Part shown: positions 36,270 through 59,564 of the stretch, one piece after another
How the letters are laid out: each line of letters begins with the position of its first letter
Numbering within the stretch: the first letter of the stretch is position 1
NCBI GenBank assembly: GCA_014730065.1
Contig: WJIW01000254.1
Location: 553 to 64,552 of the forward strand
Direction: 5' to 3'
Source: Armatimonadia bacterium
Lineage (GTDB): Bacteria; Armatimonadota; Zipacnadia; UBA1398
DNA: 64,000 nucleotides
Translations under genes and position numbers: made by a program
Notes under the pieces: generated by a model
Database searches by the model: none
What the model was told of the DNA's origin: nothing
The model's input: only the letters and a program-made list of their open reading frames with translations

Positions 36270-37067
36270 TTACGCGTCATTTCCGGGGCCATCGGGTCGA
36301 GGTGCGGTCCGCAGCTTCTCGGCGGCCTCGTCGACCCGGCGTCGCCAGCCCCAGAACCCGCGGGCGTACGCCAGATCCTTCTCCTTCACGCCCTTAATCC
36401 CTAGCAGCGACCAGACCACGATCGCGATGAGGATGGGGATGATGAGGAAGCCGGTCCAGGTTCGGGTGAAAAGCACGGCATCGTAGAGAGCGTGGGCCGC
36501 CGCCGCCACACCGAAGCCCGTCAGGAGGTAGCGGGTGCGCTTCTTGGGCACCATTTTGGCCGCACCCACCCACAGGCCCATCAGCGCGCCATAGCCGGCA
36601 TGGCCCGGCACCGCCGTGACGGCGCGCATCCCGCCCGTCAGGGCCGCGCCGAAGGGCCCTTGAGCCATGCCGCTCATCCCCACATAGAGGATGTTCTCCA
36701 GGGTCGCGAAGCCCAGGGAGGCCGCGACGCAGTACACCACGCCATCGAAGAGCTGGTTGAACTCTTTGCGCCGGAAGGGGAGGACCAGCACCGCCAGCAG
36801 CTTGCCCGATTCCTCGGCCAGGCCCACGAAGCTGGCGGCGATGAGGGCCGCGCCGAGGGGCATGGTCTCGCCGGGTGGCACATGGGCGCCGGCGCCTGCC
36901 CGGTCGGCGAGGATCTCCAGCGCCACCGCCCATACGCTGGAGAGGGCACCCAGGCCCACGGTGCCCCAGACTAGGCCGGGCGGCTCGGGATCATCTCGGT
37001 CTCGGACCATGAGCCACCAGAAGATGAGTGCCCCGGGGGCGATGGCGAGGATGATGCAGACGTGCAT
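36270..37067 (-). CDS. PrsW-family intramembrane metalloprotease
   Basis: Track ORF trimmed to MHVCIILAIAPGALIFWW. Multi-TM; conserved GLAEESGK (EExxK) and FATLEN/HALYD motifs of the PrsW/CAAX-protease-like fold. Confidence 0.65.
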   Translation of the reverse strand: MHVCIILAIAPGALIFWWLMVRDRDDPEPPGLVWGTVGLGALSSVWAVALEILADRAGAGAHVPPGETMPLGAALIAASFVGLAEESGKLLAVLVLPFRRKEFNQLFDGVVYCVAASLGFATLENILYVGMSGMAQGPFGAALTGGMRAVTAVPGHAGYGALMGLWVGAAKMVPKKRTRYLLTGFGVAAAAHALYDAVLFTRTWTGFLIIPILIAIVVWSLLGIKGVKEKDLAYARGFWGWRRRVDEAAEKLRTAPRPDGPGNDA

Positions 37068-37192
37068 TGGCGGGCTCCTGGATCCTGGACTGTCGCGCCA
37101 AGACCTTGGCCATGGTAGCACATCGGGGAGCGCCTCTGGAGGCGCTCCCCGATGTCGAACGTTCTACTGGCTTCGAAGCGAGGGTGCCGGCC

Positions 37193-37479: not shown

Positions 37480-38211
37480 CTACTGGTACTCGGAGATGTT
37501 GGCGCAGTTACGGGCCCAGTTCCGCAGGTTGTTGATGTCGCCATACCACTCGTAGGTCTGCCACCAGAGCCAGATGTTGTCGGTCGTCGGCTCCTGGTCC
37601 TGGGTGTAGTTCAGATCGCCCACAGTGCGCTGGGGCTTCAGCGCCTTCACGTGACCGTCGGCGAATGAGAAATTGGTCATGCCGTTATGCGACAGGATGA
37701 CCCCACGCTCCCGATCGAACCACGCACGCCACTCCAGGGTCCAGGGGCCCAGATCGGGGTAGAACTCGCGGCTCTCCAGCACCAGCATGCTGGTCGATGG
37801 ACGGGTGTAGGAGGCCAGTTTGCGGTTGTTGAAGGGGCCCCATGCCCAGGTGAAGCTGCCGGCGTAGGAGCGGCGGATGCCGTTGTCCCAGTCCACCGGG
37901 TGCCACCACAGGGGCTCCTGAGGCTTCTCGAAGGCGGGGCACAGGAACAGATCGACGTTCTTGATGTAGGGCTGCACCTTCCAGCGCCACGACTCCGGTC
38001 CTTGGGCCGCGTGCGGGAGTCTCTCGTCGTAGTCCTGCGCGTAGGAGAGCAGGGCAGTCGCGATCTGCCGCTGGTTGGACAGGCAGGACGTCTGCTTCGC
38101 CTTATCCTGCGCCTTGGCGAATACCGGGAACAGAATTGCCGCCAATATGGCGATAATAGCGATGACTACAAGAAGCTCGATCAGGGTGAAGCCTAATTCG
38201 CGCTTCGTCAT
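37480..38211 (-). CDS. DUF1559 / H-X9-DG domain protein with prepilin-type N-terminal cleavage/methylation motif (pseudopilin-like)
   Basis: 243 aa. MTKRELG|[24 protein letters not shown] (class III signal: G-F-T-L-I-E); C-terminal H-X9-DG motif HNGMTNFSFADGH. Confidence 0.85.
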   Translation of the reverse strand: MTKRELGFTLIELLVVIAIIAILAAILFPVFAKAQDKAKQTSCLSNQRQIATALLSYAQDYDERLPHAAQGPESWRWKVQPYIKNVDLFLCPAFEKPQEPLWWHPVDWDNGIRRSYAGSFTWAWGPFNNRKLASYTRPSTSMLVLESREFYPDLGPWTLEWRAWFDRERGVILSHNGMTNFSFADGHVKALKPQRTVGDLNYTQDQEPTTDNIWLWWQTYEWYGDINNLRNWARNCANISEYQ

Positions 38212-38300
38212 GCTGAGTTTCCCCTTCCTGAAACAAGTATCATGGATACTTCGCTGACGGGGCAGGCCGAGACGTGACCGGCCCGCCCCGTTGCTGAGTC

Positions 38301-38558
38301 CTATTCGCCGGACCCGCCATCGGTGGTCGCGCCACCGCCCGAGTCCGGGGCCTTACCAGGCGTGCCCGCTCCGCCTGCCGAGCCGCCACCACCGCCCGAG
38401 CCACCGGCCGCTCCGCCACCTTCGGAGATCACGGGCTTATCAGGCGCCAGATGGGGATCGTCGGGCGACTTCTTGGTGCCACCGCAGCCGGCGAGGGCCA
38501 GTGAGGTCACCAGGGACAACGCACCAAACGACAGAGCTAGCTTCGCGAGGGTCTTCAC
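38301..38558 (-). CDS. Small Gly/Ser-rich lipoprotein (~85 aa)
   Basis: Track ORF 38301..38702 trimmed to a GTG start giving MKTLAKLALSFGALSLVTSLALAGCGGTKK… (lipobox LAGC); mature part GGGAAGGSGGGGGSAGGAGTPGKAPDSGGGATTDGGSGE. Exact start uncertain (GTG at 38558 or 38567). Immediately downstream of DUF1559 gene B. Confidence 0.4.
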   Translation of the reverse strand: MKTLAKLALSFGALSLVTSLALAGCGGTKKSPDDPHLAPDKPVISEGGGAAGGSGGGGGSAGGAGTPGKAPDSGGGATTDGGSGE

Positions 38559-38601: not shown

Positions 38602-39417
38602 CTACTCGTACTCGGGGTGGACGTTCTGGAGGCTCGCACGCAGCACGGCGGGATCCTCCCAATCGCCAGGATTCCACCACCACCATGCCCACAGGAAGTC
38701 ATCGGTGGGCGGTGCGGGGAAGGTGTAGTTGAGGGCCCCGAAGGTCTGGGTGAACTTCAGTGGCTTGGCATGGCCATCGGTGAAGCTGATATTGCTGAGG
38801 CCATTGTGTGTGGTCATCTTCCCGAGATCGGGAGCCGGTGACGTCGGGTAACCAGCGCCCACAGGGTCGGTAATCCAGTTGCCCCAGGAGAACAGCGGGA
38901 AGTCCGCGTTCCACTCGCGGCTCTCCACGAGCAGCATGATGCTGCCAGGCCGCGGGCAGGAGCTGATCATGCCGTAGTTGATCCAGTAGTGAGCCCAAGC
39001 GTAGTTCATGCCATAGCTACGCCGAATACCGTACTCGTACCAGCCACGGGGCGATGCCATCAGGGGCTCGTTGGGCAGCTCGAAGGACGGGCACAGGTAT
39101 ATCTGGTGGTTCTTCACATAGGGATACATGGCCGTGCGCCAGTCGATCTCGATGTACCATGGCGAGTAGCCCAAGTCCGGCGGAAGCGCGTAGTCGTCCG
39201 GCGCCCAGCCCTGGGGCATGCGGGTATCGTGGTCGGCGGCGTAGGCGTGCAGACCTGTGGCGAGCTGCCGAATGTTGGACAGACAGGACGTCTGCCGCGC
39301 CTTCTCACGTGCCCTTGCGAATACGGGGAACAGAATTGCTGCAAGAATAGCGATGATGGCGATAACCACTAGGAGCTCGATCAGGGTGAAACCCTTTCGA
39401 CTCCGGCTCATGCTCAT
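38602..39417 (-). CDS. DUF1559 / H-X9-DG domain protein with prepilin-type N-terminal motif (paralog)
   Basis: Track ORF 38602..39567 trimmed to MSMSRSRKG|[24 protein letters not shown] (ATG 6 nt after AAGGAGGTG). H-X9-DG motif [13 protein letters not shown]. Roughly 45% identical to gene A over the conserved N-terminal and H-X9-DG regions (by eye). Confidence 0.85.
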
Positions 39418-39609
39418 TAAGAGCACCTCCTTCATGGAAGTCCGTACATATGATGATAGGACGCGAGTCCGGCGTCGCCTCGCCGGGCCCACGTACCGTA
39501 CCATACCATTCGTCGGGCCTAACTCACGACCTACCTCAAACGCGATTTCCCGACCCTTGCGGACCACCTATGCCCGTGTGGGCACACCTCACATGGGTAG
39601 GGAGCAGCC

Positions 39610-40929
39610 CTAGAAGGGGACTCGCAGCTCGAACCGAGAACCCTCACCCTCTTCCGAGTCAACCGTGACGATACCTCCATGCGCGTCCACGGCATTTCGT
39701 ACGATCCTCGTCCCCAATCCTGTCCCCCCTGGCTTCGTGGAGACCGCCTGGCTTGTGAACAACTTACTACGAACGTGCTCCGGGATGCCCTTGCCAGTGT
39801 CCGATACGACGATCTGGACGTATCCGCCCTCGGGGAACTCGCCCTCGGGCTGGCATGAGGTGCTGACGGAGATGCGCCCGCCCCGGGGCGTCTCGGGGAT
39901 GGCGTTGTTCACCAAGTTGTACACCGCCGAGTGGATCAGCTTCCGGTCCACCATCAGCGGAGGCGGGTCGCCGAGTCCCGATAGGTCAAGGGTTATGTCG
40001 GCACGGTCGGCCACGATCCTCAGCACCTTGGCCACCGAGCGGATGATGTCGTCCACCGATGCCTGCTCGAAGTGAGGCTCCGAGACTTGGCCCTTGATGC
40101 AGTCCGCGATCTCCCGGGCCCGGCCGGTGACCTGGTCGGCTCCGTCCATAACCATGGTGACGGCCTCGGGGAAGAACTCCTGCAGGGGCTTCAGGACCTC
40201 CAGAATGCGTTTGCGGCACTCTGGGCTGCTGGATTCCACCGCACCCGGCACGGCCATCATGGTCTGGTCGAAGATCATCTGGAGGGTCTTCACCCCGGAG
40301 GTGACAGGGGTCATGAAGTTCTTCACGTCATGGGCGATGTCTCCAATGAGCTTGACGACTTGAGCGAGCCGGGCCTCTTGGTGCAGCCTGGCGTGATCGA
40401 TGGCCATGGCGGCCTGATTGGCGACAATGAGTAAGACGTCCATGTCTTGGTCGCCGAAGGGGCCGCCGCGGCGGTTGAGGACCTGCATGACGCCGATGGT
40501 CTCGTTATCCGCGTTCTTCAGCGGAACGGTGACCATGGTGCGGGTCACGAGGTCGATCTTCTCCCCCACGGCGCGGTAGTGCTCGGGGTCGGACTGGACG
40601 TCGTCGCTGACCTCGTACTGGCCCGTGCGGAAGACCCGGCCCGCGATGCCCTGGTCGGCGTCCATTCGCATGCCCACCAGCTCGGCCGACTTGGGGCCGA
40701 CGACGTGCTGGAAGACGAGCTGTCCCGTCTCCTCGTCGTGGAGGATGACCGAGCCAGCCTCGCAGCCGACGACCTCCAGGCAGCCATCGAGGCACTCCCG
40801 GATCAACTCCTGGAGATCAGTAGTGGAGTAGACGGCGGCGGTGATGGTCCGAACGGCGTCGAGCTGCCGTCGGCGGAGGCTCAGCTCCGCGGTCACCTCG
40901 TTGTAGCCCATGGACTGGCCATCACTCAT
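39610..40929 (-). CDS. GAF-domain sensor histidine kinase
   Basis: Track ORF 39610..40983 (GTG) trimmed to MSDGQSMGYNEV… (ATG 40929 after AAGGTGG). N-terminal GAF (…GSVILHDEETGQLVF…), HisKA (IAHDVKNFMTPV), HATPase_c (VSDTGKGIPEHV…GTGLGTRIV). Confidence 0.8.
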   Translation of the reverse strand: MSDGQSMGYNEVTAELSLRRRQLDAVRTITAAVYSTTDLQELIRECLDGCLEVVGCEAGSVILHDEETGQLVFQHVVGPKSAELVGMRMDADQGIAGRVFRTGQYEVSDDVQSDPEHYRAVGEKIDLVTRTMVTVPLKNADNETIGVMQVLNRRGGPFGDQDMDVLLIVANQAAMAIDHARLHQEARLAQVVKLIGDIAHDVKNFMTPVTSGVKTLQMIFDQTMMAVPGAVESSSPECRKRILEVLKPLQEFFPEAVTMVMDGADQVTGRAREIADCIKGQVSEPHFEQASVDDIIRSVAKVLRIVADRADITLDLSGLGDPPPLMVDRKLIHSAVYNLVNNAIPETPRGGRISVSTSCQPEGEFPEGGYVQIVVSDTGKGIPEHVRSKLFTSQAVSTKPGGTGLGTRIVRNAVDAHGGIVTVDSEEGEGSRFELRVPF

Positions 40930-41127
40930 CGGCGGCTTCCACCTTGGCCTGCGTCGGCGGCGGACCGAATCCCATGGGCCCACCGTGGCGTCGAACTTGA
41001 TAGGCGTGGTATTCCCCGGCTACTATTGCAGCTCCTTTGCTCCCATAGGCAAGGGAAGGACAGTGCCTCGGGAGAATGTACCGCGCATCCATCACATCCT
41101 ACGGGATGGAGAAGGGAGACGAGGCCG

Positions 41128-42330
41128 ATGGTTGGCCGCGCTCTGACATTTCTAATGGTATTGACGCTCCTTGTGACGGTGGCGGCGATCCCCGCCATGG
41201 CCATGGAGGAGTTGTATAGCGGAACTGCTCCCATGTCCGGCCAGCCCGCCACGGGCTACGGAGGCTGGGGCAGCGGCGAAGTCGAGGAGGCAGGCTCCGC
41301 CATCGCCATCCAGACAACCGGCTACTATGAGGGCGGCCGCATCGACTTCTCCGGCGTGACGATCGAGGATGCCATCCGCGAGCTGGATAACGGCTACCTA
41401 CTGCTCGATGTCGAGGTGACGCCGGACATGACCTCCGGTACCGGCTATGGTAGCGGGATGATGGGTTCTGGCATGGGCTCGGGTGGCAGGATGGGACCCG
41501 GAATGGGCATGGGCGGCCCCGGCAGCGGCATGATGGGCCCCGGCAGTGGTGGCATGATGGGCCCCGGCGGTGGCGGCATGATGGGCCCCGGCGGTGGTGG
41601 CATGATGGGGCCAGGTATGGGGGGTGGCGAAGGGGGCATGATGGGACCCGGAATGGGCTCGGGCATGACCGGCTACGGGCAGCAGTATGAGACGCCCGAG
41701 AAGCTGGACAGGCTACGCGTCGTGCTGGTCACCGATGAGGGTGAGTACGCCGTGGAAGGACTGGCCTCCGGCGGAACCCCGTCCGCCGACGGCCGCTGGA
41801 GCGTCATCCAGGTGCCCTTCTCCGAGCTGGCCCTGTCGGGCGGCCTGCCTTCGGGCGAGGTCAAGCAGGTCCGCGTGTTCGGCAACGCCAAGGGCGAGAT
41901 CAAGCTCGGCGGCGTGCGGCTCTTCGAGGAGGACCCCATCGATGTGGTCCACCCCGTTGCTCCCGATGACATGACCTACACCTACGGCGACAGCTTCGAC
42001 CTCGAGGGCAGCGTCGACGATCCCACCAAGCAGTACCGTCTGTACTGGGACTTCGACGCCTCCGATGGCGTCTCGTTCGATGCCGGCGAGACGGGCGAGG
42101 TCGTCGAGGACGCCAACTTCTACTTCCCGCGCCCCGGCAGCTATGTTGTGAGCCTGATCGCGGTGCCTGTGGGCGGAAGGGCCCTGCCCCGGGTGGACAC
42201 CTTTACCGTTACCATCACCTACCCCGAGGGCTACGGCCAGCAGGGCGGCATGATGGGCCCCGGCGGCGGTATGATGGGACCCGGCGGCGGTATGATGGGC
42301 CCCGGCGGCGGACGCATGGGCGGCCGGTAG
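41128..42330 (+). CDS. Secreted protein with methionine/glycine-rich (MMGPGGG)n repeats and a C-terminal Ig/PKD-like beta-sandwich region
   Basis: Track ORF 40447..42330 trimmed to MVGRALTFLMVLTLLVTVAAIPAMAMEE (ATG 41128; GGAGAAGGGAG upstream; signal peptide). Two repeat blocks: aa ~110-180 (…GSGMMGSGMGSGGRMGPGMGMGGPGSGMMGPGSGGMMGPGGGGMMGPGGGGMMGPGMGGGEGGMMGPGMGSGM…) and the C-terminus (QQGGMMGPGGGMMGPGGGMMGPGGGRMGGR). Confidence 0.6.
   Translation: MVGRALTFLMVLTLLVTVAAIPAMAMEELYSGTAPMSGQPATGYGGWGSGEVEEAGSAIAIQTTGYYEGGRIDFSGVTIEDAIRELDNGYLLLDVEVTPDMTSGTGYGSGMMGSGMGSGGRMGPGMGMGGPGSGMMGPGSGGMMGPGGGGMMGPGGGGMMGPGMGGGEGGMMGPGMGSGMTGYGQQYETPEKLDRLRVVLVTDEGEYAVEGLASGGTPSADGRWSVIQVPFSELALSGGLPSGEVKQVRVFGNAKGEIKLGGVRLFEEDPIDVVHPVAPDDMTYTYGDSFDLEGSVDDPTKQYRLYWDFDASDGVSFDAGETGEVVEDANFYFPRPGSYVVSLIAVPVGGRALPRVDTFTVTITYPEGYGQQGGMMGPGGGMMGPGGGMMGPGGGRMGGR
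41449..41672 (+). repeat. Coding tandem repeat (~21-24 nt units, ggcatgatgggccccggcggtggt-like) encoding MMGPGGG units
   Basis: Visible DNA-level periodicity: catgatgggccccggcag/tggtggcatgatgggccccggcggtggcggcatgatgggccccggcggtggtggcatgatgggg… A second block lies at ~42241-42330. Confidence 0.7.
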
Positions 42331-42433
42331 TCCCGCGCGCCAGAGCGGATACGCCAAGAGAGGGGCTCCTCCGAGCCCCTCTCTTGTTGTGTACCATGCT
42401 TCCGTTCTGGCTTGGGGCGCTCGCGAAGGGGGA

Positions 42434-43105
42434 TCAGCCTACGGCGCAGGCTGGCTCCGGATCCTCGAACTGAGCCACGAGGGCCTCCAGGAACTCGGCG
42501 CCGTCGGCGCCATCGATGGCGCGGTGATCCACGGTCAGGGTGAGCCACATGGTGCTACGCACGGCGAGCTCGCCATCGACCACGAAGGGCCGCTTGGCCA
42601 GGGCGCCGATGGCGAGGATGGCCGTCTGGGGGGGGCCGATGATAGCGTTGAATGCGGTCACCCGGCCGGGGCCGATGTTGCTGATGCTGAAGGTCCCGCC
42701 CTGCTGGAGGCTGGCGCGCAGCCGTCCCTTGCGGGCCTGAGCGATCATATCTCGGGTCTCCTCGGCCACGTCGGCGAGGCTCTTCTCGTTGGCGCCCTTG
42801 ACGACGGGCACCAGCACGCCCTTGTCCGTGGCAACGGCGAAGCCCACGTTGACCTCCTTGTACAGCCTCACCTTCCCATCCACGAAGCCGGCGTTCACCA
42901 CGTCGTGGTCGGGCAGCACCGCGGCGCAGCACTTGAGGATGATGTCGTTGACCGAGGGGGCCTCCTCCCACTCGTCCTTCAGGCGACTACGCAGCTCCAG
43001 AATGGGGCCGCCGTCCACCTCGGCGTGGATGTGGAAAACGGGTATCTCGGTATGGCTCGCCACCACGCGGTCGGCGATGGCTTTGCGGATGGGGCTAAGC
43101 TCCAT
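42434..43105 (-). CDS. Stand-alone 2-oxoacid dehydrogenase acyltransferase (E2) catalytic-domain protein (no lipoyl or E3-binding domains)
   Basis: Track ORF 42434..43633 trimmed to MELSPIRKAIADRVVASHTEIPVFHIHAEVD… (223 aa). Catalytic motif DHRAIDGADGAEFL (DHRxxDG) present. Start uncertain; a GTG ~17 codons upstream is possible. Confidence 0.6.
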   Translation of the reverse strand: MELSPIRKAIADRVVASHTEIPVFHIHAEVDGGPILELRSRLKDEWEEAPSVNDIILKCCAAVLPDHDVVNAGFVDGKVRLYKEVNVGFAVATDKGVLVPVVKGANEKSLADVAEETRDMIAQARKGRLRASLQQGGTFSISNIGPGRVTAFNAIIGPPQTAILAIGALAKRPFVVDGELAVRSTMWLTLTVDHRAIDGADGAEFLEALVAQFEDPEPACAVG

Positions 43106-43149
43106 CTCCTCGTGCTCGGGCTCGTAGCTCCGGCCAGCGGACAATGGGT

Positions 43150-44394
43150 TCACACACCCTTCATCTCGAAGTAATCGGGCACGACCTTCGGGCTCTCTCT
43201 GAGCACTCGCCCGAGCCATGCCACGGCATCCATGCAGCCCCAGAGGATGGACGCATCCAGGGCGTCCATGGGGCTGAGGTCTGCCAGATCGGACAGCGTC
43301 GCCAGGGCCCCCTGGGATGCCACCAGCTCCAGGATCCGGGCGTCGCTGTCCATGGGATCGCCCTTCTCGTCGGTCGCGTCGAACCTTAGGGCGCACGCCA
43401 CGGCGAGCCGGGTGGCATGGGGCACAATGTCGTGAGCCGTCTGCGTCTGGAGGGCGCCGATCAGGCGGTCTTCGGCGGCCAGCTTCCGCCGCAGGTCCCG
43501 GCCCACCCGGAAGACGGTATCGCCCAGAGCCTTGTTGGCGAATCTTCGTAGCAGGTCCTCGATGTGGTGCTCGATGGACGCCTCGTCGAACTCCTCGGGG
43601 TACGCCTTCAGGAGGGCCCGTCCCGACTCCCACATGGCTCGTCGGCCCGCGTCGCGCACGTCATCGTCCTCCATGACCTCCCACATGTAGGTGGCGTCGG
43701 GAAGCTGGAGCCGTCCCACGTACGCGCAGGTGGCGTGTCCCAGGTTGTGGATGAACAACTTGCGGTCCACGTACGCCGCCATGTTGTCCTTGGGCAGGAG
43801 GCCATGGACGTCGGGAACGCCCTGCTTGAAAGCGCTCCGGTCGCAGATCAGTGTATTGTACGCTTCGGCGTACACACGGAGGGGGTCGCGCTTCCGGTCC
43901 CGCTCGGTGATGAGGGGCACCATCTTGCCGATGCTCGTCTCCACCAGCCCGACCAGCTCGTCCAGAGGGTAGTCCTCGGGCAAACACTCGGCGAGCCCTT
44001 CGCGAGCGTGCTCCGCGGCATCCCGGAGGTTCTCGCAGAGTATGATGTCGATGGGACCCCCGCCCGCCTCTCGGCGCGCCCGGAGGCCCTCGGCGATGAC
44101 GGGGTACACCTTGGGCAGGGCTCGGGGGCCCACGGCGGTGCCCAGGATGTCCGCCTTGGCGATCTCCTCCACCAGCCGGTCCTTGGCCCCCGCGTGTAAG
44201 GCCCGAACACCCTCGATCTCGATCTCCTGCCGGGGAGTGTCCCGGACCTCCACCACGTACGAGCGCGCGATGTTGAGCTCGGCCACAAGCTCCTGGTCCA
44301 CGTCCACGAAGCACACATCGTAGCCAGCCTGCGCGAAAAGTTGGCCGATGAAGCTCCGGCCGATATTGCCCGCTCCGAACTGGACCAAGGTCAT
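43150..44394 (-). CDS. mtlD: Mannitol-1-phosphate 5-dehydrogenase (mannitol dehydrogenase family)
   Basis: 414 aa. Classic N-terminus MTLVQFGAGNIGRSFIGQLF (GAGNIGRGF); …KLFIHNLGHAT… motif; longer C-terminal helical domain than E. coli MtlD. Confidence 0.75.
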   Translation of the reverse strand: MTLVQFGAGNIGRSFIGQLFAQAGYDVCFVDVDQELVAELNIARSYVVEVRDTPRQEIEIEGVRALHAGAKDRLVEEIAKADILGTAVGPRALPKVYPVIAEGLRARREAGGGPIDIILCENLRDAAEHAREGLAECLPEDYPLDELVGLVETSIGKMVPLITERDRKRDPLRVYAEAYNTLICDRSAFKQGVPDVHGLLPKDNMAAYVDRKLFIHNLGHATCAYVGRLQLPDATYMWEVMEDDDVRDAGRRAMWESGRALLKAYPEEFDEASIEHHIEDLLRRFANKALGDTVFRVGRDLRRKLAAEDRLIGALQTQTAHDIVPHATRLAVACALRFDATDEKGDPMDSDARILELVASQGALATLSDLADLSPMDALDASILWGCMDAVAWLGRVLRESPKVVPDYFEMKGV

Positions 44395-47440: not shown

Positions 47441-48195
47441 GTGACCCGCGGTTTCGCCGCACGGCGATGATGCTCGGCGATGCCGCTGTGGATCGTCTGG
47501 CCGGATCCCACGTGGCCATCGTGGGACTGGGGGCCGTCGGGAGCTACGCCGTAGAGGGCCTGGCCCGGGCAGGGGTGGGCCGCCTGACCCTGGTGGACTT
47601 CGATCAGGTCAAGCCGAGCAACATCAACCGGCAGCTCTATGCCCTGGAGTCCACCATCGGCCAGCCCAAGGCAAGGGTGGCCGCGGCCCGCGTCCGGGAC
47701 ATCAACCCCGGATGCGACGTCCGCCCCCTGGAGCTGTTCGCCCACTCGGACACCCTGGACGAGATCCTGAGCGGGCCCCCCGATCTCGTGGTCGACGCCA
47801 TCGATGGCCTGCTCCCCAAGCGGGTCCTGATTCAGGACACGGTCCGGCGGAGCATCGGCATCATCGCCGCCATGGGCGCGGCCCTCCGGACCGACCCTTC
47901 GGCCGTCTGCGTGGGTCCACTGCGGACCACCCGTGGCTGCCCCCTCGCCAAGCGGCTCCGCCGGATGCTCAGGGATCACATCGATCTGGACGCCGTGCAA
48001 TGCGTGTACAGCGATGAGGTTGTACCTGAAGGCTCGGCGAGGGAGCCCGACGAGGCCGACCTGGCCGAGTCGCCCACGGGGCGGGGACGGCAGCGTCGCA
48101 CGCTGCCCAGCCTTCCTACGCTCACAGGCATTTTCGGCCTGACCGTGGCCAACGAGGCCATCGGCAGTCTGGTGGGCGACGCGTGGCCCAGGTGA
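47437..48195 (+). CDS. tcdA: tRNA threonylcarbamoyladenosine dehydratase (ThiF/MoeB-like E1 family)
   Basis: GTG at 47437 overlaps the tatD TGA (GTGA). VSDPRFRRTAMMLGDAAVDRLAGSHVAIVGLGAVGSYAVEGLARAGVGRLTLVDFDQV (GxGxxG Rossmann, TcdA/CsdL-type N-terminus). Track start 47401 (GTG) is an alternative. Confidence 0.8.
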   Translation: MSDPRFRRTAMMLGDAAVDRLAGSHVAIVGLGAVGSYAVEGLARAGVGRLTLVDFDQVKPSNINRQLYALESTIGQPKARVAAARVRDINPGCDVRPLELFAHSDTLDEILSGPPDLVVDAIDGLLPKRVLIQDTVRRSIGIIAAMGAALRTDPSAVCVGPLRTTRGCPLAKRLRRMLRDHIDLDAVQCVYSDEVVPEGSAREPDEADLAESPTGRGRQRRTLPSLPTLTGIFGLTVANEAIGSLVGDAWPR

Positions 48196-48235
48196 GCGGC
48201 CCGGCCCGCCGAACCCTCCCTCGGAGGCGCCTCCC

Positions 48236-50623
48236 ATGATCAGCCCACGCTCGATACTGCTCGTCGCCGCGGCCAGTGCGTTAGCCTGCACCGGCCACGC
48301 CCAGGATGAAGGAGATCCGGCCATGACGCCGCCCATGCAAGTCAGTGGACGCTACCCACACCTGGCGGTGACCAACTCCAGCAGCGAATGCGGCATCGGC
48401 GCCGTGGCCGAGTGGGCCGGGCGCCTGTGGCTCGTCACGTACCCGCCCCACGAGCCCTCGGGGAGCGATGACAAGCTCTACTGGATCGACGGCGACCTGG
48501 TGCGCCACACCCATCCGGCATCCATCGGCGGAACCCACGCCTCCAGAATGGTCCATCGAGAGTCAGAGCAGCTCATCATGGGACCGTACTTCATCGATGC
48601 CGGCGGCGGTGTGCGCGTCTTCGCCCTCGCCGACTTCCCCGCCCGCCTGACCGCTGCCATGCGCCACCTCGAGGACCCCGTCGGAAGGGTGTACCTCCTC
48701 GGCATGGAGGAGGAGTTGTACGAAGTCGATGTGCGGACCCTGGCCGTGCGAGAGCTGTACGGTCTCGACGGAATACCCGTTTCGGGCACCCATGCCAAGG
48801 GGGGCTACAAGGCGCAGGACCGGCTGGTGTTTAGCAACAATGGCGACCGCCGATGGGCCGAGGACGGCGACTCCGGCGCCCTCGCCCAAGGCGATGGAGT
48901 CCACTGGGAGGTCGTCCACCGCGCGCCCTTCACGGAAGTCACCTCACGTGAGGGCATCGGTCCGACGGACTCGGCTGTGCCCCTGTGGTGCCTGGGGTGG
49001 GACCATCGCTCGGTCATCCTGCGGATCCTGGATGGCGGCCAGTGGCACGTGCTACGACTTCCCAAGGGGAGCTACACCCACGACGCGCTCCATGGCTGGT
49101 ACACCGAATGGCCGCGTATCCGCGAAGTAAGAGGAGGGACGTACCTCGCGCACATGCATGGCCTGTTCTGGGACTTTCCACCTACGATGAGCGCCTCGGA
49201 CCGTTCTGGCCTCCGGCCCATCTCCACCTACCTCAAGATGCCTGTGGACTACTGCGACTGGAACGGCCGGCTGGTTATGGGCTGCAATGACGCCTCGACC
49301 TTCGAGAACCCCTTCGTGAACCAGCCCAGCTCCAACCTATGGCTCGGGTCTCTGGAGGATCTGGCTCAGCTCGGCGGCCCTGCGGGCTACGGAGGCCCGT
49401 GGGTGAGTGATGCGGTTCGAGCCGGCCAGGCCTCGGACCCCTTTTTGGTCGGTGGGTTCGCCCACGTCACGCTGCACCTCTCGGCGGAGCCCGAGGCCAC
49501 CTTCGACGTGGAAGTGGACCAGAGCGGACGCGGCGATTGGCGCGCCATCGAATCGGTCAAGACCGGCCCCGGAGGGTACGCCTACCGGGTATGGACCGAG
49601 CCACGGGGCGGCGACTGGATCCGTCTGGTGCCCCATGGGAGCGACACGGAGGTCACCGCGTATCTCCACCTGACGACTCCGTACAGGGAGCAGAGAGCCC
49701 ACGGCTCGCGCCGGGTGCCCCTGAGCTTCGACGGCCTCGCCGATATAGACAGCCAGGCCCCCTGGTCGGGCGGCATCATCCGGCCTCGGGGCGGTGATCT
49801 GGGAACCCTCCACGGCTTGCTCCATCCGGCCAATGAGGGACAAGCCACGTACGTGGAGATGACGGCCGACTTGGGCCTGCATGCCGCTGACGATCCCGAA
49901 GCCGCCGCTTGGCTGGAGACCAGCCACGGCCTCGGCGGACCGGACTTCTCACTGGACCCGGCCTCGGTGGTGATGACGGGCGACGGCGGCGGGACGTACC
50001 GGCTCCCTCGCACCGCCCCCCAGTACGACCGAGCCTTCGAGCTAGGCTGGCCCCGAGGCATCCGGGAGGTCGTCACCGAGCGCTCGCTGATGAACATCCA
50101 TGGGACCTTCTATGAGCTGCCCCGGCCCTCGTCGGGGGGGCTGGAGCGGATTCGGCCCATCTCCACCCACGGTAAGAGGATCGTCGACTTCTGCTCCTGG
50201 CGGGGCCTGCTCGTGATGTCCGGGGTGCGGGAGTCGGCCGCGGCCGATGGGCACGTCTTCAGGGGACCGGATGGTCTGGCCCTCTGGCTCGGGGACGTGG
50301 ATGACATATGGGCCATGGGCAAGCCAGTGGGTTACGGCGGGCCGTGGCTGGACACACCCGTGGCCGCCGGCCAGGCTTCGGACCCGTACCTTATGGCCGG
50401 TTACGATCACAAGACGCTGACCCTGTCCCACGACGCCGCTGCCGCGGTGACCATGACTGTACAGGTCACGGCCGGCTTCGACGTGTGGCACGACTACGCT
50501 ACGGTATTGGTCCCGCCAGGCGTGGAGAAGTCCCATTCCTTCGCCACCGGCTTCTCGGCCCACTGGATGCGGGTCGTGGCCGATACCGACTGCCGGGCTA
50601 CGGCGCAGCTTCTGTACCGGTAA
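48236..50623 (+). CDS. Secreted 795-aa hypothetical protein with internal tandem duplication of a ~170-aa module
   Basis: Signal peptide MISPRSILLVAAASALACTGHAQ (GGAGG RBS). Two homologous modules: …YLAHMHGLFWDFPP…LRPISTYLKMPVDYCDWNGRLVMG…GYGGPWVSDAVRAGQASDPFLVGGFAHVTLHLSAEP… and …LMNIHGTFYELPRP…IRPISTHGKRIVDFCSWRGLLVMSG…GYGGPWLDTPVAAGQASDPYLMAGYDHKTLTLSHDA… No family recognised. Confidence 0.55.
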   Translation: MISPRSILLVAAASALACTGHAQDEGDPAMTPPMQVSGRYPHLAVTNSSSECGIGAVAEWAGRLWLVTYPPHEPSGSDDKLYWIDGDLVRHTHPASIGGTHASRMVHRESEQLIMGPYFIDAGGGVRVFALADFPARLTAAMRHLEDPVGRVYLLGMEEELYEVDVRTLAVRELYGLDGIPVSGTHAKGGYKAQDRLVFSNNGDRRWAEDGDSGALAQGDGVHWEVVHRAPFTEVTSREGIGPTDSAVPLWCLGWDHRSVILRILDGGQWHVLRLPKGSYTHDALHGWYTEWPRIREVRGGTYLAHMHGLFWDFPPTMSASDRSGLRPISTYLKMPVDYCDWNGRLVMGCNDASTFENPFVNQPSSNLWLGSLEDLAQLGGPAGYGGPWVSDAVRAGQASDPFLVGGFAHVTLHLSAEPEATFDVEVDQSGRGDWRAIESVKTGPGGYAYRVWTEPRGGDWIRLVPHGSDTEVTAYLHLTTPYREQRAHGSRRVPLSFDGLADIDSQAPWSGGIIRPRGGDLGTLHGLLHPANEGQATYVEMTADLGLHAADDPEAAAWLETSHGLGGPDFSLDPASVVMTGDGGGTYRLPRTAPQYDRAFELGWPRGIREVVTERSLMNIHGTFYELPRPSSGGLERIRPISTHGKRIVDFCSWRGLLVMSGVRESAAADGHVFRGPDGLALWLGDVDDIWAMGKPVGYGGPWLDTPVAAGQASDPYLMAGYDHKTLTLSHDAAAAVTMTVQVTAGFDVWHDYATVLVPPGVEKSHSFATGFSAHWMRVVADTDCRATAQLLYR

Positions 50624-54625: not shown

Positions 54626-57600
54626 CTAGTGGACCACCTTGGGCCAGTATCGCTCTTCGTCGAAGTGGGGGCTCTTGCCCTCCGTGTGGCACGTGAGGCA
54701 GGTTGCGGCGGTGAGGGGCTCTAGGATCTCGTGGCCCTGGGCGGTAGCGGGACCGACTCGGTGGCAGGCCACGCACGAGACATCGGGCAGCCGGGCGGCC
54801 TCGGGCTCCAAGGGTGCCGCCGAGTGGCAGTCCCAGCAGTCGGGATCGAACTCCCGGTCCAGGTCTCGGAGCGTCTGGGCGGCCGAGGCGTGGGGGGTCG
54901 CCTGCCACTGCTCAAGCTGCTCGGCGTGGCACGCGCCACACGCCTGGGGCTGGGCGGACTCATCCACTCCCGCCGCCAGAATACGCTCCCGCTGCTCGGC
55001 CTGCACTTCGTCCTGGTAGTCGGCGATGAGTGCCGATACTTGGGGGCTCTCCAGGATCTGGTCATCCATCGGGATGAGCTGGGGCTCAGCCGATACGGGC
55101 CGAAGGTCCTCATCGAGCCGCAAGGTCAGCCGGCCGACCCACTCGCCGTTCTGGCCGGCGGAGACGATCCAGGTGTCATCCGCTCGCTCGGGCACCTGAA
55201 GCGACCGTCCCTCGTGGCCACACACGATCACGTCCACGTCCTCGACGGCCTCGGCGAGAGCTCGGGCATCCTCGACGTAGCCGTGGTAGAGCACCACGAC
55301 CAAGGAGGTGGACGGCGCCACCGAGGCGACTTCGGCTCGGACGCGCTCGAGGGGATCGGCCAGGGCCACGCCCTCGGGAGCCTCGCCATCACCGAAGGCG
55401 AAGGCTCGGGGGGAGGTGACCGACACCACGCCCACGCTCACGCCGCGCCGGTCGATGATCTGCGCCGAAGGCTCCACGCCGTCCACGGCGGCATTGGCCG
55501 AGACGTAGGGCATTGGCGAGCCCTGCATCAGCGCGGACAGCACATCAGCGCCATAGGTCAGGTCCTGATCGCCAATGGCGATGGCGTCGTAGTCCATGAC
55601 CTCGAAGGCCTTCTGGATGTACTCGAACTTGGTCCAGTCCTGGGTGGCCCCGAGCACGTCGCCGCTGTCGACCACGATGGAGGCGGGGTACATGTCCCGG
55701 AGCTCTGCTATGGCCCCGGCCTGACGGGTAAGGCCGCCGTAGGGGTTGCCGGGGCAGCGGCATGCTTCGAGCTGCCCGTTGGTGCTCCCCGTGTAGACGA
55801 TGGTGAGGGACGTGGGCGCCAGCCCGATGCGGTCTGCTATCGTGAGGGCTGTGTCGGCGCCGGCGATGTCGGCCACCTCGCGGTTCTCGTAGAGCAGCAG
55901 GCAGTCACCGTACACGCCCATCTGGGCCTGGGACTGGGCATCCCGGTAGAGGGCGTCCAAGATCCCGCCCGGTGCCGTCGCCTCGGCGCGGATGGCCTGG
56001 GGATCGAGGCCCGCCCGCTCCAGCGGCGCGTCCCAATAGCTGCTGTTCCCGGCGGCCAGCCGGGCCTCCAAGTACGCCGCCATGGCGTCGGGATGATCCC
56101 GCCACACAACGGCCTGGCGCGCCGCTTCCTCGATCTCCGCCACGCCCCCCTGGGCGGCCAGGTCACCCGACTCACTGAGGCTCAGGGCGGGGTGGAGCTC
56201 GACCTCGTACGCGGCCCGGTCGCCCGCTCGCTCCAGGAGAGAGAGCACGGTGGTCACCGCCTCCAGGGCCGGCGGATACTGGCAGCGGTAGTAGAGATCG
56301 ATACGACCCGGCTCGCGCTCGCGACCCACCATCAGGCCCGACGAGGTATGCTCGGGGAGGACCATGTAGTACTCCCCGGTCCGCGTCAGAGCCTGGGAGA
56401 TCTGCTCCAGGTTCGGGCGCTGCTCAAGCTGATCGGCGGGCAGGAAGAAGGCGGGGAGCCATCCCACCTCCGCCATCTCCGACAGCCGGCGCCCCTCCTC
56501 GCTATCGTAGGCCACCTCCCGTGGCTCGAGCCCCGGCATCAAAGCGGCGAGATCGCTCACCAAGGGCCGGTGACTCGTCAAGGCGGCCTCCTCGGAGCCG
56601 ACCACGATCAGCTCCAGGGGCGTGGGATCCTCGTACTCGCAGCGAGCGTCGCCCGTTCCGGCATCCCGGCAATAGCCGATCTGACCCGGCTCGAGGCAGT
56701 CGCCGTGATCGGTGCACTCGGGCACTCCCGCGCAGCGCTCCCCGCGAAGCTGGTCGGGGAGAGTCCAGCAGAACGTCCGGAGCAGGGCGGGGGCGAAGTT
56801 GTCGTCCTCGTACTCGATGTTGTTCAGGTAAAGGGTGGGCGTGCCGGGGATCATGAAGCGGCGAGCCCGGTTGGCGTGGGCTAGGAGCATCCGAGTGACT
56901 TGCTCGGAAGTCGCGTGCTCCCCGACGACCTCGGGGTCGATACCCTGGGCCTCCATGACGGCCGTGGCTTCGGCCCCCGGTTGCACGGCGCGCAGGGCAG
57001 CGTACCGGGTCACGGCCTCCCGCCCATAGAGGACCTGGATGGCGATCTCGCGGCGGGCCTCGGCGACGGCTTCGGGCCCGAAGGTCGACACGAACTGACC
57101 GGTCTCATTGTCGTAGTGAACCACATGCCATCGGCGGACCTGGACGCGATCCTCGCCGAAGAGACCCAGGGCCTCACGTAGCTGGGGCTCCAGCTCCAGG
57201 CAGTAGCCACAGCCCCAGGCGGTGTACGAATCGAGCACCAGCCGCGGCCCCTCGAGGGTGTCCTTGCGCTCCAGCCACTGGGCGACACGCTCCGCCTGCC
57301 CGGGGTCGTCGGGCACGCTGGGGTCCAGGGGAATCTCGCGCAGGCGGTACTCAGCGATCTCGGCTTCATCCACCCGGAGATCGAGGCGAGACAGGGCCCG
57401 GCCCTCCAGGCTGAACTCACCGATGATGGCCTCGCCGACCTTGTCCACAAGGCCGCCCGGACGGCGGTAGTGAGCATTGAGGAAGATGTCCACATCGGGC
57501 ACCGACTCGGCCAGGAGGCGGGTGCGGTCACTGCCCAGGTGAGAGAGGACCACCATCAGGTCGACTTGGCCCCGGATCTCGTCCACCACCGAGTGGACGC

Positions 57601-58195
57601 CTTCGATGGGGTCGCCCACCTGGGCCCACATGGCCTGGCGCGGATCGCCCAGGGCGTAGAGGTCCAGTGGTGTGGCGGCGGTGATCCCCACGGTGACGCC
57701 CCCGACCTCGGTGATGAGGTACCGCTCCACGCCCGCCTCACGGGCGGGCTCCTGGCCCATGTTCGCCGAGAGGAAGGGCGCGCCACCCAGCTCGGCGGCT
57801 CGGGCCAGGAACTCGGGCCCCCACTGTAGCTCCTCATCGCCCACGGCGTAGGCGGCGTAGCCCATGTCCGCACAGGCCCGGAGGTGGACCTCGGTGCGTG
57901 CCTGGTCGACTACGGGTCCCTCGGTGTACTCGTCGTACGCCGACCCGCCGAACTGACCCCCCGCATCCAGGAGCAGTGTGGGCGTGAGTCCGCCCCGGCG
58001 CACCTGCTCGATCATGTGGGCCCGGCGGGCGATGCCCCCGTCCTTGCTCACGACGCAGTCGCAGGGGGTGACCATGGCGTGGGTCTCGCCGGTGTACGCG
58101 ATAGTGATGTCTTTGACGTCGGCGCCGACGGGCAGAGCTGGCAGCAAGGCGAAGAGGCAGAGCGCCCGGGCGACCCGGGCGCCGGGAATGGTCAT
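54626..58195 (-). CDS. Periplasmic multidomain fusion: 2x degenerate 5'-nucleotidase/metallophosphoesterase-like domains + DsbA-like thioredoxin (CGYC) + C-terminal tetraheme c-type cytochrome (4x CxxCH)
   Basis: Track ORF 54626..58315 trimmed to MTIPGARVARALCLFALLPALPVGADV (signal; ATG 58195). Domain 1 (DITIAYTGETHAMVTPCDCVV…LLLDAGGQFGGS…VVLSHLGSDRTRLLAESVPDVDIFLNAH) and domain 3 (LTIVYTGSTNGQLEACRCPGNPYGG…VVVLYHGYVEDARALAEAVEDVDVIVCGHEG) follow the 5'-NT layout, but the D-x-H / GNHE metal ligands are replaced by Cys-containing motifs. Middle region has WGCGYC … IPGTPT (DsbA-like). Last ~110 aa: CGACH, CWDCH, CVACH, CLTCH. Confidence 0.6.
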   Translation of the reverse strand: MTIPGARVARALCLFALLPALPVGADVKDITIAYTGETHAMVTPCDCVVSKDGGIARRAHMIEQVRRGGLTPTLLLDAGGQFGGSAYDEYTEGPVVDQARTEVHLRACADMGYAAYAVGDEELQWGPEFLARAAELGGAPFLSANMGQEPAREAGVERYLITEVGGVTVGITAATPLDLYALGDPRQAMWAQVGDPIEGVHSVVDEIRGQVDLMVVLSHLGSDRTRLLAESVPDVDIFLNAHYRRPGGLVDKVGEAIIGEFSLEGRALSRLDLRVDEAEIAEYRLREIPLDPSVPDDPGQAERVAQWLERKDTLEGPRLVLDSYTAWGCGYCLELEPQLREALGLFGEDRVQVRRWHVVHYDNETGQFVSTFGPEAVAEARREIAIQVLYGREAVTRYAALRAVQPGAEATAVMEAQGIDPEVVGEHATSEQVTRMLLAHANRARRFMIPGTPTLYLNNIEYEDDNFAPALLRTFCWTLPDQLRGERCAGVPECTDHGDCLEPGQIGYCRDAGTGDARCEYEDPTPLELIVVGSEEAALTSHRPLVSDLAALMPGLEPREVAYDSEEGRRLSEMAEVGWLPAFFLPADQLEQRPNLEQISQALTRTGEYYMVLPEHTSSGLMVGREREPGRIDLYYRCQYPPALEAVTTVLSLLERAGDRAAYEVELHPALSLSESGDLAAQGGVAEIEEAARQAVVWRDHPDAMAAYLEARLAAGNSSYWDAPLERAGLDPQAIRAEATAPGGILDALYRDAQSQAQMGVYGDCLLLYENREVADIAGADTALTIADRIGLAPTSLTIVYTGSTNGQLEACRCPGNPYGGLTRQAGAIAELRDMYPASIVVDSGDVLGATQDWTKFEYIQKAFEVMDYDAIAIGDQDLTYGADVLSALMQGSPMPYVSANAAVDGVEPSAQIIDRRGVSVGVVSVTSPRAFAFGDGEAPEGVALADPLERVRAEVASVAPSTSLVVVLYHGYVEDARALAEAVEDVDVIVCGHEGRSLQVPERADDTWIVSAGQNGEWVGRLTLRLDEDLRPVSAEPQLIPMDDQILESPQVSALIADYQDEVQAEQRERILAAGVDESAQPQACGACHAEQLEQWQATPHASAAQTLRDLDREFDPDCWDCHSAAPLEPEAARLPDVSCVACHRVGPATAQGHEILEPLTAATCLTCHTEGKSPHFDEERYWPKVVH

Positions 58196-58226
58196 CGTGT
58201 GGGTCCTTCGCTCCCCCGATGCGGGG

Positions 58227-59564
58227 TTATTGGGGATCCGCGCAGCAGCGGAATCCGACGTAGTCTCCCTTAAGGACGGGGTGCTTCGGTCCTCCCGTGC
58301 TACAGTCGAATCCATCGAGCCGCTGGTCGCGGAAGGACGCGCCGCGGATGTCCACGGTGGTGTCCTCGGAGCCCCAGCCGCTCCCGATGTACTCGCTTAC
58401 ATTACCGATCATGTCATAGAGCCCGTACCCGCTGACGCAGTAAGGGCGGGACCCGATGCGCTCGGGGTGGGCGTCCTCCCCCATCATGACGCCGATGTTG
58501 CAGGCGCCCCGCACGGGACGGTCGCCGTACGGGAAGCGGTGCCCGTCGGGCCCTTCGCAGCCGGCCTCCCACTCGTCGGGCTCACAGAGGCGCTTCCCCT
58601 TGCCCCCGCACCAGCCCGCGGCGCCGAACTGGTTGATGTCGGTTACGGGCTTGGCACCCACGATGTTGGGCGCCTCGTAGATGTCGATGCATACCCGGTC
58701 CTCGACCAGGCGCATGCCCGCGGGACACTTGGGCTCCGGGGGCACGCTCTTCATGAAAAGAGTGTCATCGGCCTGGCCACCCATTAGGGTAGGGGTCTGG
58801 GCGCCGCCCTCGGCCCCCTGGAAGGCCTGCTGAGCCGTCGCCGTGGTGAAGGCCACCAGCTCCTTGATGGAGACGTTCGAGTCGGCGGGCTCAGTGTCGG
58901 CCATGCCCGTGATGGCGTTGGTCAGGCAGAACCCCAGCAGGGGACGCTCCAGGGACTCGTCGTTGAGCTCCTGGCCCGGCGAGACGGCCGAAAGCAGGAG
59001 GCAGCTCGCGGCCAGAGGCTCGAGGACGTTCCCGGGGATGGCCAAATCCTCGGGAGTGCCCTCGGGCTTGAAGGCGCTCCAGGGCGAAGTGTCGAGGATC
59101 AGCAGCTTCTTGCCGGCGGGAATGGCCGCCATGTACTCGGCGAGCTGCTCCACCGTCAGCGCCGTACTGGGCAGGTCATCCAGGTCGGCGTTGTAGGGGC
59201 AGACGTAGATGGTGGGAGCGCCCTCTTCGCTCGCCTGGGCGACCATGGTCAGGCAGAGGTAGACGAAGACCTCGTCGGTCTCGGCAGCGGTCTGACAGAA
59301 CTCCAGGGCGCCTACCAGGTTCGCCCGGCTCGCCTGCCCGCCCGAGAGGGCGCCCACATGCTCCATGGGCACGGCGCCGATGTCGGGGTTGGCGAACCGC
59401 TCGGCGGCGATGAAGGCATAGGTCTCCCCCTCGACGCGGCCGGGGATGTCGAAGTCCTCGTACTCGTTCACGCCCGCACATACGGCGAAGCGCTGGGCTT
59501 CCTGGGCCCACACCCCCGTCGCAAGCAACCCGAGTAAGATGGACCCTAGCCACACACGTTTCAT
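58227..59564 (-). CDS. Secreted caspase-like (catalytic-dyad-substituted) domain + formylglycine-generating-enzyme (FGE/SUMF1) domain protein
   Basis: 445 aa, signal MKRVWLGSILLGLLATGVWAQ. N-terminal FAVCAGVNEYEDF…LLILDTSPWS resembles the peptidase C14 fold, but the His (YLCLTM) and Cys (ILDTSP) positions are substituted. C-terminal FGE-sulfatase domain (…YGLYDMIGNVSEYIGSGW…RGASF…CCADPQ). Confidence 0.6.
   Translation of the reverse strand: MKRVWLGSILLGLLATGVWAQEAQRFAVCAGVNEYEDFDIPGRVEGETYAFIAAERFANPDIGAVPMEHVGALSGGQASRANLVGALEFCQTAAETDEVFVYLCLTMVAQASEEGAPTIYVCPYNADLDDLPSTALTVEQLAEYMAAIPAGKKLLILDTSPWSAFKPEGTPEDLAIPGNVLEPLAASCLLLSAVSPGQELNDESLERPLLGFCLTNAITGMADTEPADSNVSIKELVAFTTATAQQAFQGAEGGAQTPTLMGGQADDTLFMKSVPPEPKCPAGMRLVEDRVCIDIYEAPNIVGAKPVTDINQFGAAGWCGGKGKRLCEPDEWEAGCEGPDGHRFPYGDRPVRGACNIGVMMGEDAHPERIGSRPYCVSGYGLYDMIGNVSEYIGSGWGSEDTTVDIRGASFRDQRLDGFDCSTGGPKHPVLKGDYVGFRCCADPQ

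Follow-up and report, generated by a model that had tools for sequence, protein, structure and literature searches.

An unannotated family of exported Armatimonadota proteins combining a split jelly-roll, a variable Gly-rich insert and a PKD domain

What purpose does a run of MMGPG-type repeats serve in an exported bacterial protein? The question is raised by a gene carried by a 64,000-nucleotide stretch of DNA of ~67% G+C (hereafter the window; contig WJIW01000254.1, positions 553 to 64,552) from an Armatimonadia bacterium. The coding sequence (41128..42330, + strand, stop codon at 42328-42330) is translated without interruption into 400 amino acids. An earlier note, made from the letters alone, had described the product as a secreted protein built from (MMGPGGG)n methionine-rich repeats, a candidate copper or silver sponge or extracellular matrix component, with a divergently transcribed GAF-domain kinase as its possible sensor. 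Examination of the gene, of its relatives and of their surroundings revealed a different organisation: the product is a non-enzymatic exported protein of an Armatimonadota family, in which the repeats make up a predicted disordered loop inside a folded domain, and a C-terminal tail. From this architecture and from the evolutionary pattern of the family we tentatively infer a role in the cell envelope or extracellular matrix.

The protein starts with a typical Sec-type signal peptide (aa 1-25, 41128..41202, +; MVGRALTFLMVLTLLVTVAAIPAMA, then ME...), read from the sequence and conserved in homologues, which ends with AMA directly before ME. Its peak hydropathy window (KD19 = 2.37 at aa 8) is the sole hydrophobic segment, no second one being found elsewhere in the 400 residues, and secretion as first proposed is upheld. 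Anchoring as a lipoprotein was rejected, as the protein contains no Cys, and a PEP-CTERM or other C-terminal sorting signal was rejected for want of a C-terminal hydrophobic helix. An AlphaFold2 model built on a 31-member family alignment reached a mean predicted local distance difference test score (pLDDT) of 76; most of aa 26-104 and 185-364 scored over 90, and aa 105-184 and 380-400 scored under 50. The model comprises the N-terminal half of a beta-jelly-roll resembling carbohydrate-binding modules (CBMs), with about six strands, an invariant WGSG motif and YYEGG (aa 26-104, 41203..41439, +); a disordered Gly/Met/Pro-rich loop holding 19 Met and five MMGPG units (aa 105-184, 41440..41679, +); the C-terminal half of the jelly-roll, with five strands, among them LRVVLVT, and the near-invariant residues R197, W224, P230 and G252 (aa 185-272, 41680..41943, +); a PKD (Ig-like) domain with the motif YWDFDASDG (aa 273-364, 41944..42219, +); and a Gly/Met/Pro-rich tail with three MMGPGGG units, whose disorder in the model starts at aa 380 (aa 365-400, 42220..42327, +).

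The structural neighbours of the model are CBMs and PKD domains. As many as 134 residues align structurally to a single 170-residue CBM, and each flank of the repeat is only ~80-88 residues long; since the alignment exceeds what either flank could supply, both flanks form one beta-jelly-roll, and the Met-rich segment becomes an ~80-residue disordered loop between strands 6 and 7. As modelled, the repeat is thus an insertion within the jelly-roll domain and not a scaffold, and the protein is not built from repeats but from a jelly-roll and a PKD domain, with the repeats confined to the inserted loop and the tail.

The jelly-roll is of the same fold as type-B CBMs (CBM11 1v0a, CBM8 7t7z, CBM30 2c24, CBM22, CBM29 and the laminarin-binding X584 8qx6), but it differs from them in having no CBM sequence match in Pfam or the PDB and in not being joined to a catalytic domain. 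Of the structurally matching CBMs, none was identified as bearing a long disordered insert in mid-fold, although no systematic check was made, and the window protein has one. W47 is invariant and W224 near-invariant across the family. Pfam and NCBIfam held nothing for the jelly-roll part, and a search of PDB sequences with the family profile retrieved no CBM at E <= 1, the matches there being limited to the PKD domain. No Pfam or NCBIfam match to CopC, CusF or cupredoxins was obtained either, the structural neighbours being those named above.

The PKD domain, an Ig-like beta-sandwich of ~85 residues, is the only part of the protein to give a domain match, and for the window protein alone this match is below threshold (PKD_4, 14.1 bits against a 27-bit cut-off, E = 0.049). 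The 31-member family profile nevertheless matches the PKD domains of ColH and ColG among PDB sequences (E = 2.7e-12 to 1e-7), and most homologues bear precomputed PF00801 or PF18911 matches, which confirms the assignment of this module at the sequence level. Compared with its counterparts in the Clostridium collagenases ColH and ColG, the domain is divergent (14 bits for a 27-bit cut-off), is present in a single copy and is followed by the Met-rich tail.

The repeats themselves are far from the composition of their surroundings. The 79 residues of aa 106-184 include 19 Met, 42 Gly and 7 Pro, and the 36 residues of the tail include 7 Met and 18 Gly, giving 26 Met in 115 repeat residues, close to the ~25 first estimated. 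Against a background of 2.3% Met (16,587 residues in 34 other open reading frames (ORFs) of the window) this is an enrichment of about tenfold, with binomial probabilities of 2e-14 for at least 19 Met in 79 residues and 2e-5 for at least 7 in 36; no comparable Met-rich stretch occurs in any other frame of the 64 kb. The strict MMGPG motif is found five times in the central segment, whose first third (~30 residues, GSGMMGSGMGSGGRMGPGMGMGG) is degenerate, and three times in the tail. Once trimmed, the insert is 53% Gly and 24% Met. Tandem units of ~21-24 nt, suspected from the first reading, were recovered with Tandem Repeats Finder as a 24-nt array of 3.5 copies with 94% matches (41527..41609, +; unit GGCATGATGGGCCCCGGCGGTGGT, encoding GMMGPGGG) and a 21-nt array of 3.2 copies with 93% matches (42244..42311, +). 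The repeats were also likened to the Cu(I)/Ag(I)-binding Mets motifs of CopC, PcoC, CusF, CueO and Ctr1, but the canonical motifs are nearly absent (one MxM, no MxxM, no His and no Cys), and adjacent MM pairs spaced 7-8 residues apart stand in their place.

Tyrosines are found at both ends of the loop and at the start of the tail, as GYG (aa 106-108, 41443-41451, and aa 182-184, 41671-41679) and GYGQQ(Y) (aa 368-372, 42229-42243), with FGQQY or NYGQG in homologues. It is purely speculative that these borders could serve as anchoring or cross-linking positions.

A homology search yielded 49 proteins, all unnamed or 'PKD domain-containing', the named ones coming from Armatimonadota. Inserts were measured between fixed structural anchors in 55 members, 31 from a word-seeded search and 24 from an exhaustive profile search. 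The profile search, covering 1.84 billion representatives, returned 58,139 matches at E <= 1e-3, a figure dominated by giant multi-PKD proteins and not indicative of family size; only the 24 new single-stretch matches of 335-435 aa were used. The insert lies at the identical position in 55/55 members. Its length ranges from 24 to 199 aa (median 93 aa), its Gly content from 26 to 62% (median 47%) and its Pro content from 2 to 26% (median 12%). Its Met content spans 0-35%, reaching at least 10% in 29 members and staying below 5% in 22; in the less composition-biased set from the profile search just 5 of 24 members reach 10%. Taken together, the 55 inserts hold no Cys and a single His.

In Met-poor inserts the Gly/Pro setting is kept and Phe, Tyr or Leu takes the place of Met, or hydrophobic residues are almost absent, as exemplified by GGFPGGPGGFPGG (P0130), GAFPGAGG (P0188), GQGFPGQGFPG (P0186), GGYPGGPGGYPGG (P0187) and GGLGGLGGG (P0203), and the contents of Met and of other hydrophobic residues are anticorrelated (r = -0.60). 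Within the Met-rich lineages the repeat unit varies (GGMMGPG, GGPMGSGGPGGMM, GPMGGGM, MVPGMPGG, MMQPG), so that composition is kept rather than sequence. The Met-rich C-terminal tail is found only in the close subfamily of the window protein, to which the fragments P0009 and P0010, truncated at the N-terminus, also belong. The trait common to the family is a disordered loop rich in Gly and Pro and sparsely set with flexible hydrophobic residues, and its Met flavour is specific to a clade; the Met repeats, on which the earlier note had centred, are thus not the conserved feature. What these data define is an unannotated family combining a split jelly-roll, a Gly-rich insert and a PKD domain, the main domain being without a Pfam model.

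Two further observations concern the distribution of the repeats. Two short contigs assigned to 'Thermoleophilia bacterium AnMBR.bin25' (JAXGNF010000114.1, locus L011, and JAXGNF010000120.1, locus L013) each bear a homologue of 79-81% identity; they are probably mis-binned Armatimonadota, with two different alleles in one bin. Repeats of the MMGPG or GMMGPGMMG type are also present in unrelated exported proteins of other lineages (P0043, P0047, P0048 and P0049). P0049 is ZraP-like (weak, E = 4e-8) and P0047 Spy-like (weak, E = 1e-3), and in P0043 a repeat is found ahead of each of three PepSY-like modules. These ZraP/Spy/CpxP-like and PepSY-like proteins share with the window protein the low-complexity motif and export, but their folded domains are unrelated, and the motif seems to recur as a low-complexity element of periplasmic proteins. 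A literature search retrieved no bacterial methionine-rich repeat of relevance, and the string MMGPG only in unrelated text.

Repeat number changes rapidly. Thirteen alleles were taken from one 90%-identity cluster plus its neighbours, all from short-read metagenome assemblies, in which tandem repeats may collapse or expand, so that exact copy numbers in the window and in these alleles are uncertain. Across the 13 alleles, whose non-repeat cores of 267 aa are at least 93.3% identical, insert length runs from 96 to 148 aa and tail length from 15 to 42 aa. Variation is seen even where the core is 100% identical, as in five alleles whose inserts measure 100, 109 or 120 aa and whose tails measure 15 or 33 aa. 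Every one of the length variants is in-frame. The guess that the repeat may be length-variable is supported by these differences among alleles with identical cores.

The gene is divergent from a histidine kinase gene (39610..40929, - strand), with which it shares a 198-bp intergenic region (40930..41127), as originally noted. The kinase is made up of a GAF domain, an H-box and a HATPase_c domain (Pfam GAF_2 7.9e-21, HATPase_c 6.4e-24) and has no transmembrane segment (maximum KD19 = 1.16). A genome scan with an alignment of the close subfamily gave five loci. In 5/5 loci of the close subfamily (the window, L001, L002, L004 and L014) an orthologue of the kinase (62-71% identity) is found in divergent orientation 182-198 bp upstream, while the outer genes differ. 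The pairing of the kinase with the Met-rich protein is thus genuinely conserved. No response regulator gene lies next to the pair in any of the five. The aligned intergenic regions, from genomes whose proteins are 52-81% identical, share in 5/5 cases a promoter-like motif, AGGGAAS-N14/15-GAATG (41052..41078, +), for which a promoter role is presumed, and a conserved CGAATC near the kinase start (40967-40972). A sigma-70 site at 40997-41026, the one site given by a promoter scan, was discarded, not being conserved in the more distant genomes. Expression of the Met-rich protein is probably coupled to the divergent cytoplasmic kinase. As for its suggested role as a sensor, the kinase is soluble and cytoplasmic, without a transmembrane segment, and so cannot directly sense metal in the periplasm.

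The GGAAC-like upstream half of the AGGGAAS motif resembles the -35 elements of extracytoplasmic function (ECF) sigma factors. In L002 an ECF-type sigma gene is found nearby, and in the window, L001 and L004 a gene for a PrsW protease.

More distant members show a second partnership. In 5/7 distant loci the family member lies directly downstream of ymdB, with a gap of -4 to 156 bp (L006, 5186-7104; L008, 5191-6981; L010, 5062-7245; L016, 4203-6056; L017, 4206-6068); these five are without the kinase, ymdB is often preceded by recA/recX-rny, and the other neighbours vary. The two remaining distant loci, L009 among them, have no ymdB. From this recurrent arrangement, ymdB and the family member look like a conserved and probably co-transcribed pair. 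In Bacillus subtilis, expression of biofilm-matrix genes requires ymdB (PMC6123443). By analogy with that distant organism, the link is a hint of a matrix or envelope role.

The reading that we prefer, and hold only tentatively, is that of an envelope or matrix protein with a cohesive, elastomer-like disordered loop. The jelly-roll probably serves for docking onto a glycan or another polymer of the envelope or matrix, and together with the PKD domain it would anchor the protein. The Gly/Met loop and the tail would act, much as abductin, elastin or FG repeats do, as an entropic polymer that coheres weakly with itself, and would give the envelope or extracellular matrix a layer that is compliant or gel-like. 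The stickers in this reading are the hydrophobic residues of the Gly/Pro-rich insert, Met in MM pairs every 7-8 residues here and Phe (GGFPGG), Tyr (GGYPGG), Leu or none elsewhere, and repeat number changes fast through in-frame slippage. The thioethers may incidentally confer reactivity toward soft metals and oxidants, possibly a secondary property of the Met-rich clade. Our preference rests on the conserved Gly/Pro loop, on the interchangeability of Met, Phe, Tyr and Leu, on fast slippage and on the candidate docking module, which together follow a sticker-spacer logic. The designation of the protein as an extracellular matrix candidate is consistent with these results.

Short tandem units like those of the loop are known from abductin, elastin (VPGVG), flagelliform silk (GPGGX) and FG nucleoporins. 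Abductin is a Gly/Met-rich random-coil elastomer of consensus GGFGGMGGGX (PMC13052691). Like it, the window loop is about 50% Gly, has Met (~24%) as its main hydrophobic residue and is predicted to be random coil, a likeness that is one of analogy and not of homology; in paralogous lineages, moreover, Phe occupies this context (GGFGG/GGFPGG), another feature shared with abductin. The window protein differs from abductin in being bacterial and not molluscan, in having repeats of 80 + 35 residues, with the loop emerging from a folded domain, instead of a long polymer, and in the presence of Pro in the loop, of which abductin has little; the resemblance is compositional only. In short, the CBM-like jelly-roll, the PKD domain and the low-complexity repeat are each of a known kind. 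For their arrangement, a hypervariable disordered Gly/Met loop in mid-jelly-roll that comes in Met, Phe and Tyr flavours and is associated with two conserved gene partnerships, no description was found in the literature.

Several observations weigh against a cohesive loop. Inserts nearly devoid of hydrophobic residues (4-5%) exist in P0183, P0194 and P0036, so that cohesion is not a universal role of the loop. The tenfold Met enrichment, which survives turnover of the repeat unit in many lineages, suggests that Met as such has been selected for in this clade, something that mechanics alone do not explain. The likeness to CBMs is at the level of the modelled fold, with no CBM sequence match. 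Finally, neither ymdB/rny nor a second family member is present in the window, and the ymdB link is missing from the window's subfamily.

Should the preferred reading of an envelope or matrix protein be right, the protein would carry a prokaryotic Gly/Met 'rubber' or sticker-spacer domain on a glycan-binding-like module, for which no described case was found, and would bring to light, in a phylum that has received little study, a new principle in the design of envelope or biofilm materials. It would also offer a natural Met/Phe/Tyr/Leu series at one structural position for studies of sticker chemistry. A more elaborate and rather improbable version would make it the bacterial counterpart of Gly/Met elastomers and FG repeats: the jelly-roll would dock onto a glycan, the hypervariable loop of Met pairs would form an elastic layer or gel, with oxidation of Met, or thioethers cross-linked through Cu(I)/Ag(I), as the switch of its cohesion, repeat number would tune the material and the GAF kinase would control its production. 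Whatever the role of the loop, the family is defined, with its two conserved gene partnerships (GAF kinase and ymdB).

An unlikely alternative, though one with several points in its favour, is that the Met-rich loop and tail form a sponge in which a soft metal ion is wrapped by 3-4 thioethers from neighbouring MM pairs, buffering Cu(I) or Ag(I) in the periplasm or outside the cell. The 26 Met in 115 repeat residues, an exported protein, a loop predicted to be disordered, and Met enrichment retained across lineages despite the change of unit (GGMMGPG, GGPMGSGGPGGMM, GPMGGGM, MMQPG) would all suit such a role, as would the similar MMGPG repeats in ZraP-like and Spy-like periplasmic proteins. CueO offers a parallel, as a beta-sandwich protein into which a Met-rich segment is inserted, as in the window protein. 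SilE/PcoE, the N-terminal region of PcoB and the CueO insert are likewise exported, Met-rich and disordered, the predicted disorder of the window protein being restricted to loop and tail. The disordered Met/His regions of SilE, PcoB and CueO bind Cu(I)/Ag(I) (PMC5008109, PMC12509749, PMC11840665), and sponges of the SilE/PcoE type are recognised by His/Met binding motifs and by location in a sil or pco operon (PMC5008109). The window protein, however, is not homologous to these proteins, contains no His in its repeats and has MM pairs instead of MxxH, HxxM, MxM or MxxM, and its gene is not near sil, pco, cus or cue genes.

Genomic context gives little to this metal-binding role. Pfam scans of most but not all ORFs found no clear copper or silver homeostasis gene in the 64-kb window, and copper/silver genes were found in none of L001, L002, L004, L006, L008, L010, L014, L016, L017 and L018; copA, cusCFBA, copC/D, multicopper oxidase and CusRS-type genes are thus missing from the window and from the inspected homologue loci, with one ambiguous case. 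In L009 the family member (P0027) lies ~2 kb from an RND pump gene whose best match is CusA/CzcA, below the cut-off (445 vs 701 bits) and barely above multidrug RND models, and a copper link through this pump is ambiguous. The partner kinase is of a cytoplasmic GAF type, unlike periplasmic metal sensors such as CusS/CopS. Met is below 5% of the loop in 22 of the 55 members (~40%), where Phe, Tyr or Leu replaces it, and is dispensable at this position in those members. Of the proposed metallo-sponge there remains a Met-rich, exported and disordered segment, and what does not stand is the abundance of canonical motifs and any clear linkage to metal genes. Were Cu(I)/Ag(I) binding nevertheless real, it would reveal a His-free metal-buffering region made of MM pairs outside the cop/cus/sil systems.

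Less probable still is a neutral or near-neutral low-complexity expansion, in which a surface loop of the jelly-roll tolerates slippage repeats and the Met flavour is a mere flexible spacer whose composition drifts by lineage. Such drift would account for the fast in-frame change of copy number between near-identical alleles, for the wide range of insert length (24-199 aa) and composition across the family, and for repeat units 93-94% identical in DNA, a sign of recent expansion. The insert is nonetheless present in all 55 members at the same position and never lost, 24 aa being the minimum, which implies a need for it. Furthermore, ATG-rich repeats run counter to the bias of a genome with 65-70% G+C, the same clade gained another Met-rich segment, similar in composition, at the C-terminus, and every length variant observed is in-frame.

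A sacrificial antioxidant or redox switch is quite improbable. Exposed Met would scavenge HOCl, H2O2 and chloramines and be reduced again by Msr, or their oxidation would make a cohesive loop soluble, as happens with the Met-rich low-complexity domain of yeast Pbp1. Dense, solvent-exposed Met in a disordered exported segment would be well placed for this, and Met residues are established as redox-tunable stickers of phase-separating low-complexity domains (PMC8394241), a general precedent. Yet msrA, msrB and msrPQ were undetected in the window by Pfam scans of most but not all ORFs, and Met-free members of the family exist.

That a frameshift, a mis-assembly or a non-coding repeat mimics a Met-rich ORF is so improbable that it can be dismissed: whatever the effect of short-read assembly on copy number, identical architecture and frame recur in dozens of independent assemblies, and the parts flanking the repeat are modelled with high confidence as a single domain, something possible only if the frame holds across the repeat. 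The gene is real, as indicated by a G+C content at third codon positions (GC3) of 0.84, similar to that of neighbouring genes, by third-position-dominated differences from the closest homologue at 81% identity (51/19/110 at codon positions 1/2/3), by the ribosome-binding site GAAGGGAG (41111..41118, +; ATG 9 nt further on), invariant across five aligned genomes, and by a hairpin after the stop codon. The doubt raised in the earlier note about an artefact in the repeat is thereby settled as regards the reading frame. The hairpin (42349..42392, +) is terminator-like, lies between convergent genes and has a G+C-rich core stem of 14 bp (42355-42386); its RNA folds at -40.2 kcal/mol (z = -6.1), with 0/200 shuffles equally stable, and it has no T-tract, hence was missed by a simple terminator scan. 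Overlapping antisense ORFs at 41445-41666 and 41713-42357 were dismissed as by-products of the G+C-rich repeat.

The rest of the window carries, among others, a nuo operon, sulfatases, glycoside-hydrolase-like genes, DUF1559 prepilins and a PrsW protease. Two DUF1559 prepilin-type genes with the N-methylation motif and the PrsW intramembrane protease gene are found upstream of the kinase (37483-38352, 38602-39567 and 36273-37163, all on the - strand). The order PrsW-prepilin(s)-kinase is repeated in L001 and L004, and DUF1559 genes are present in L001, L004 and L009; the association may be incidental, such genes being possibly numerous in the phylum. What probability the explanations weighed above leave over falls to something else.

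Convergent with the Met-rich gene, the ORF at 42434-43633 (-) matched only a 2-oxoacid dehydrogenase E2 catalytic domain (aa 172-393), and its L001 homologue has only 241 aa; the ORF seems to encode an acyltransferase domain on its own, lacking a lipoyl domain, and it abuts a gene of the mannitol-dehydrogenase family (43150-44394). An ORF of 826 aa (48143-50620, +) has zero Pfam matches, and another of 1256 aa (54629-58396, -) has as its sole match a C-terminal segment resembling cytochrome c554/c'.

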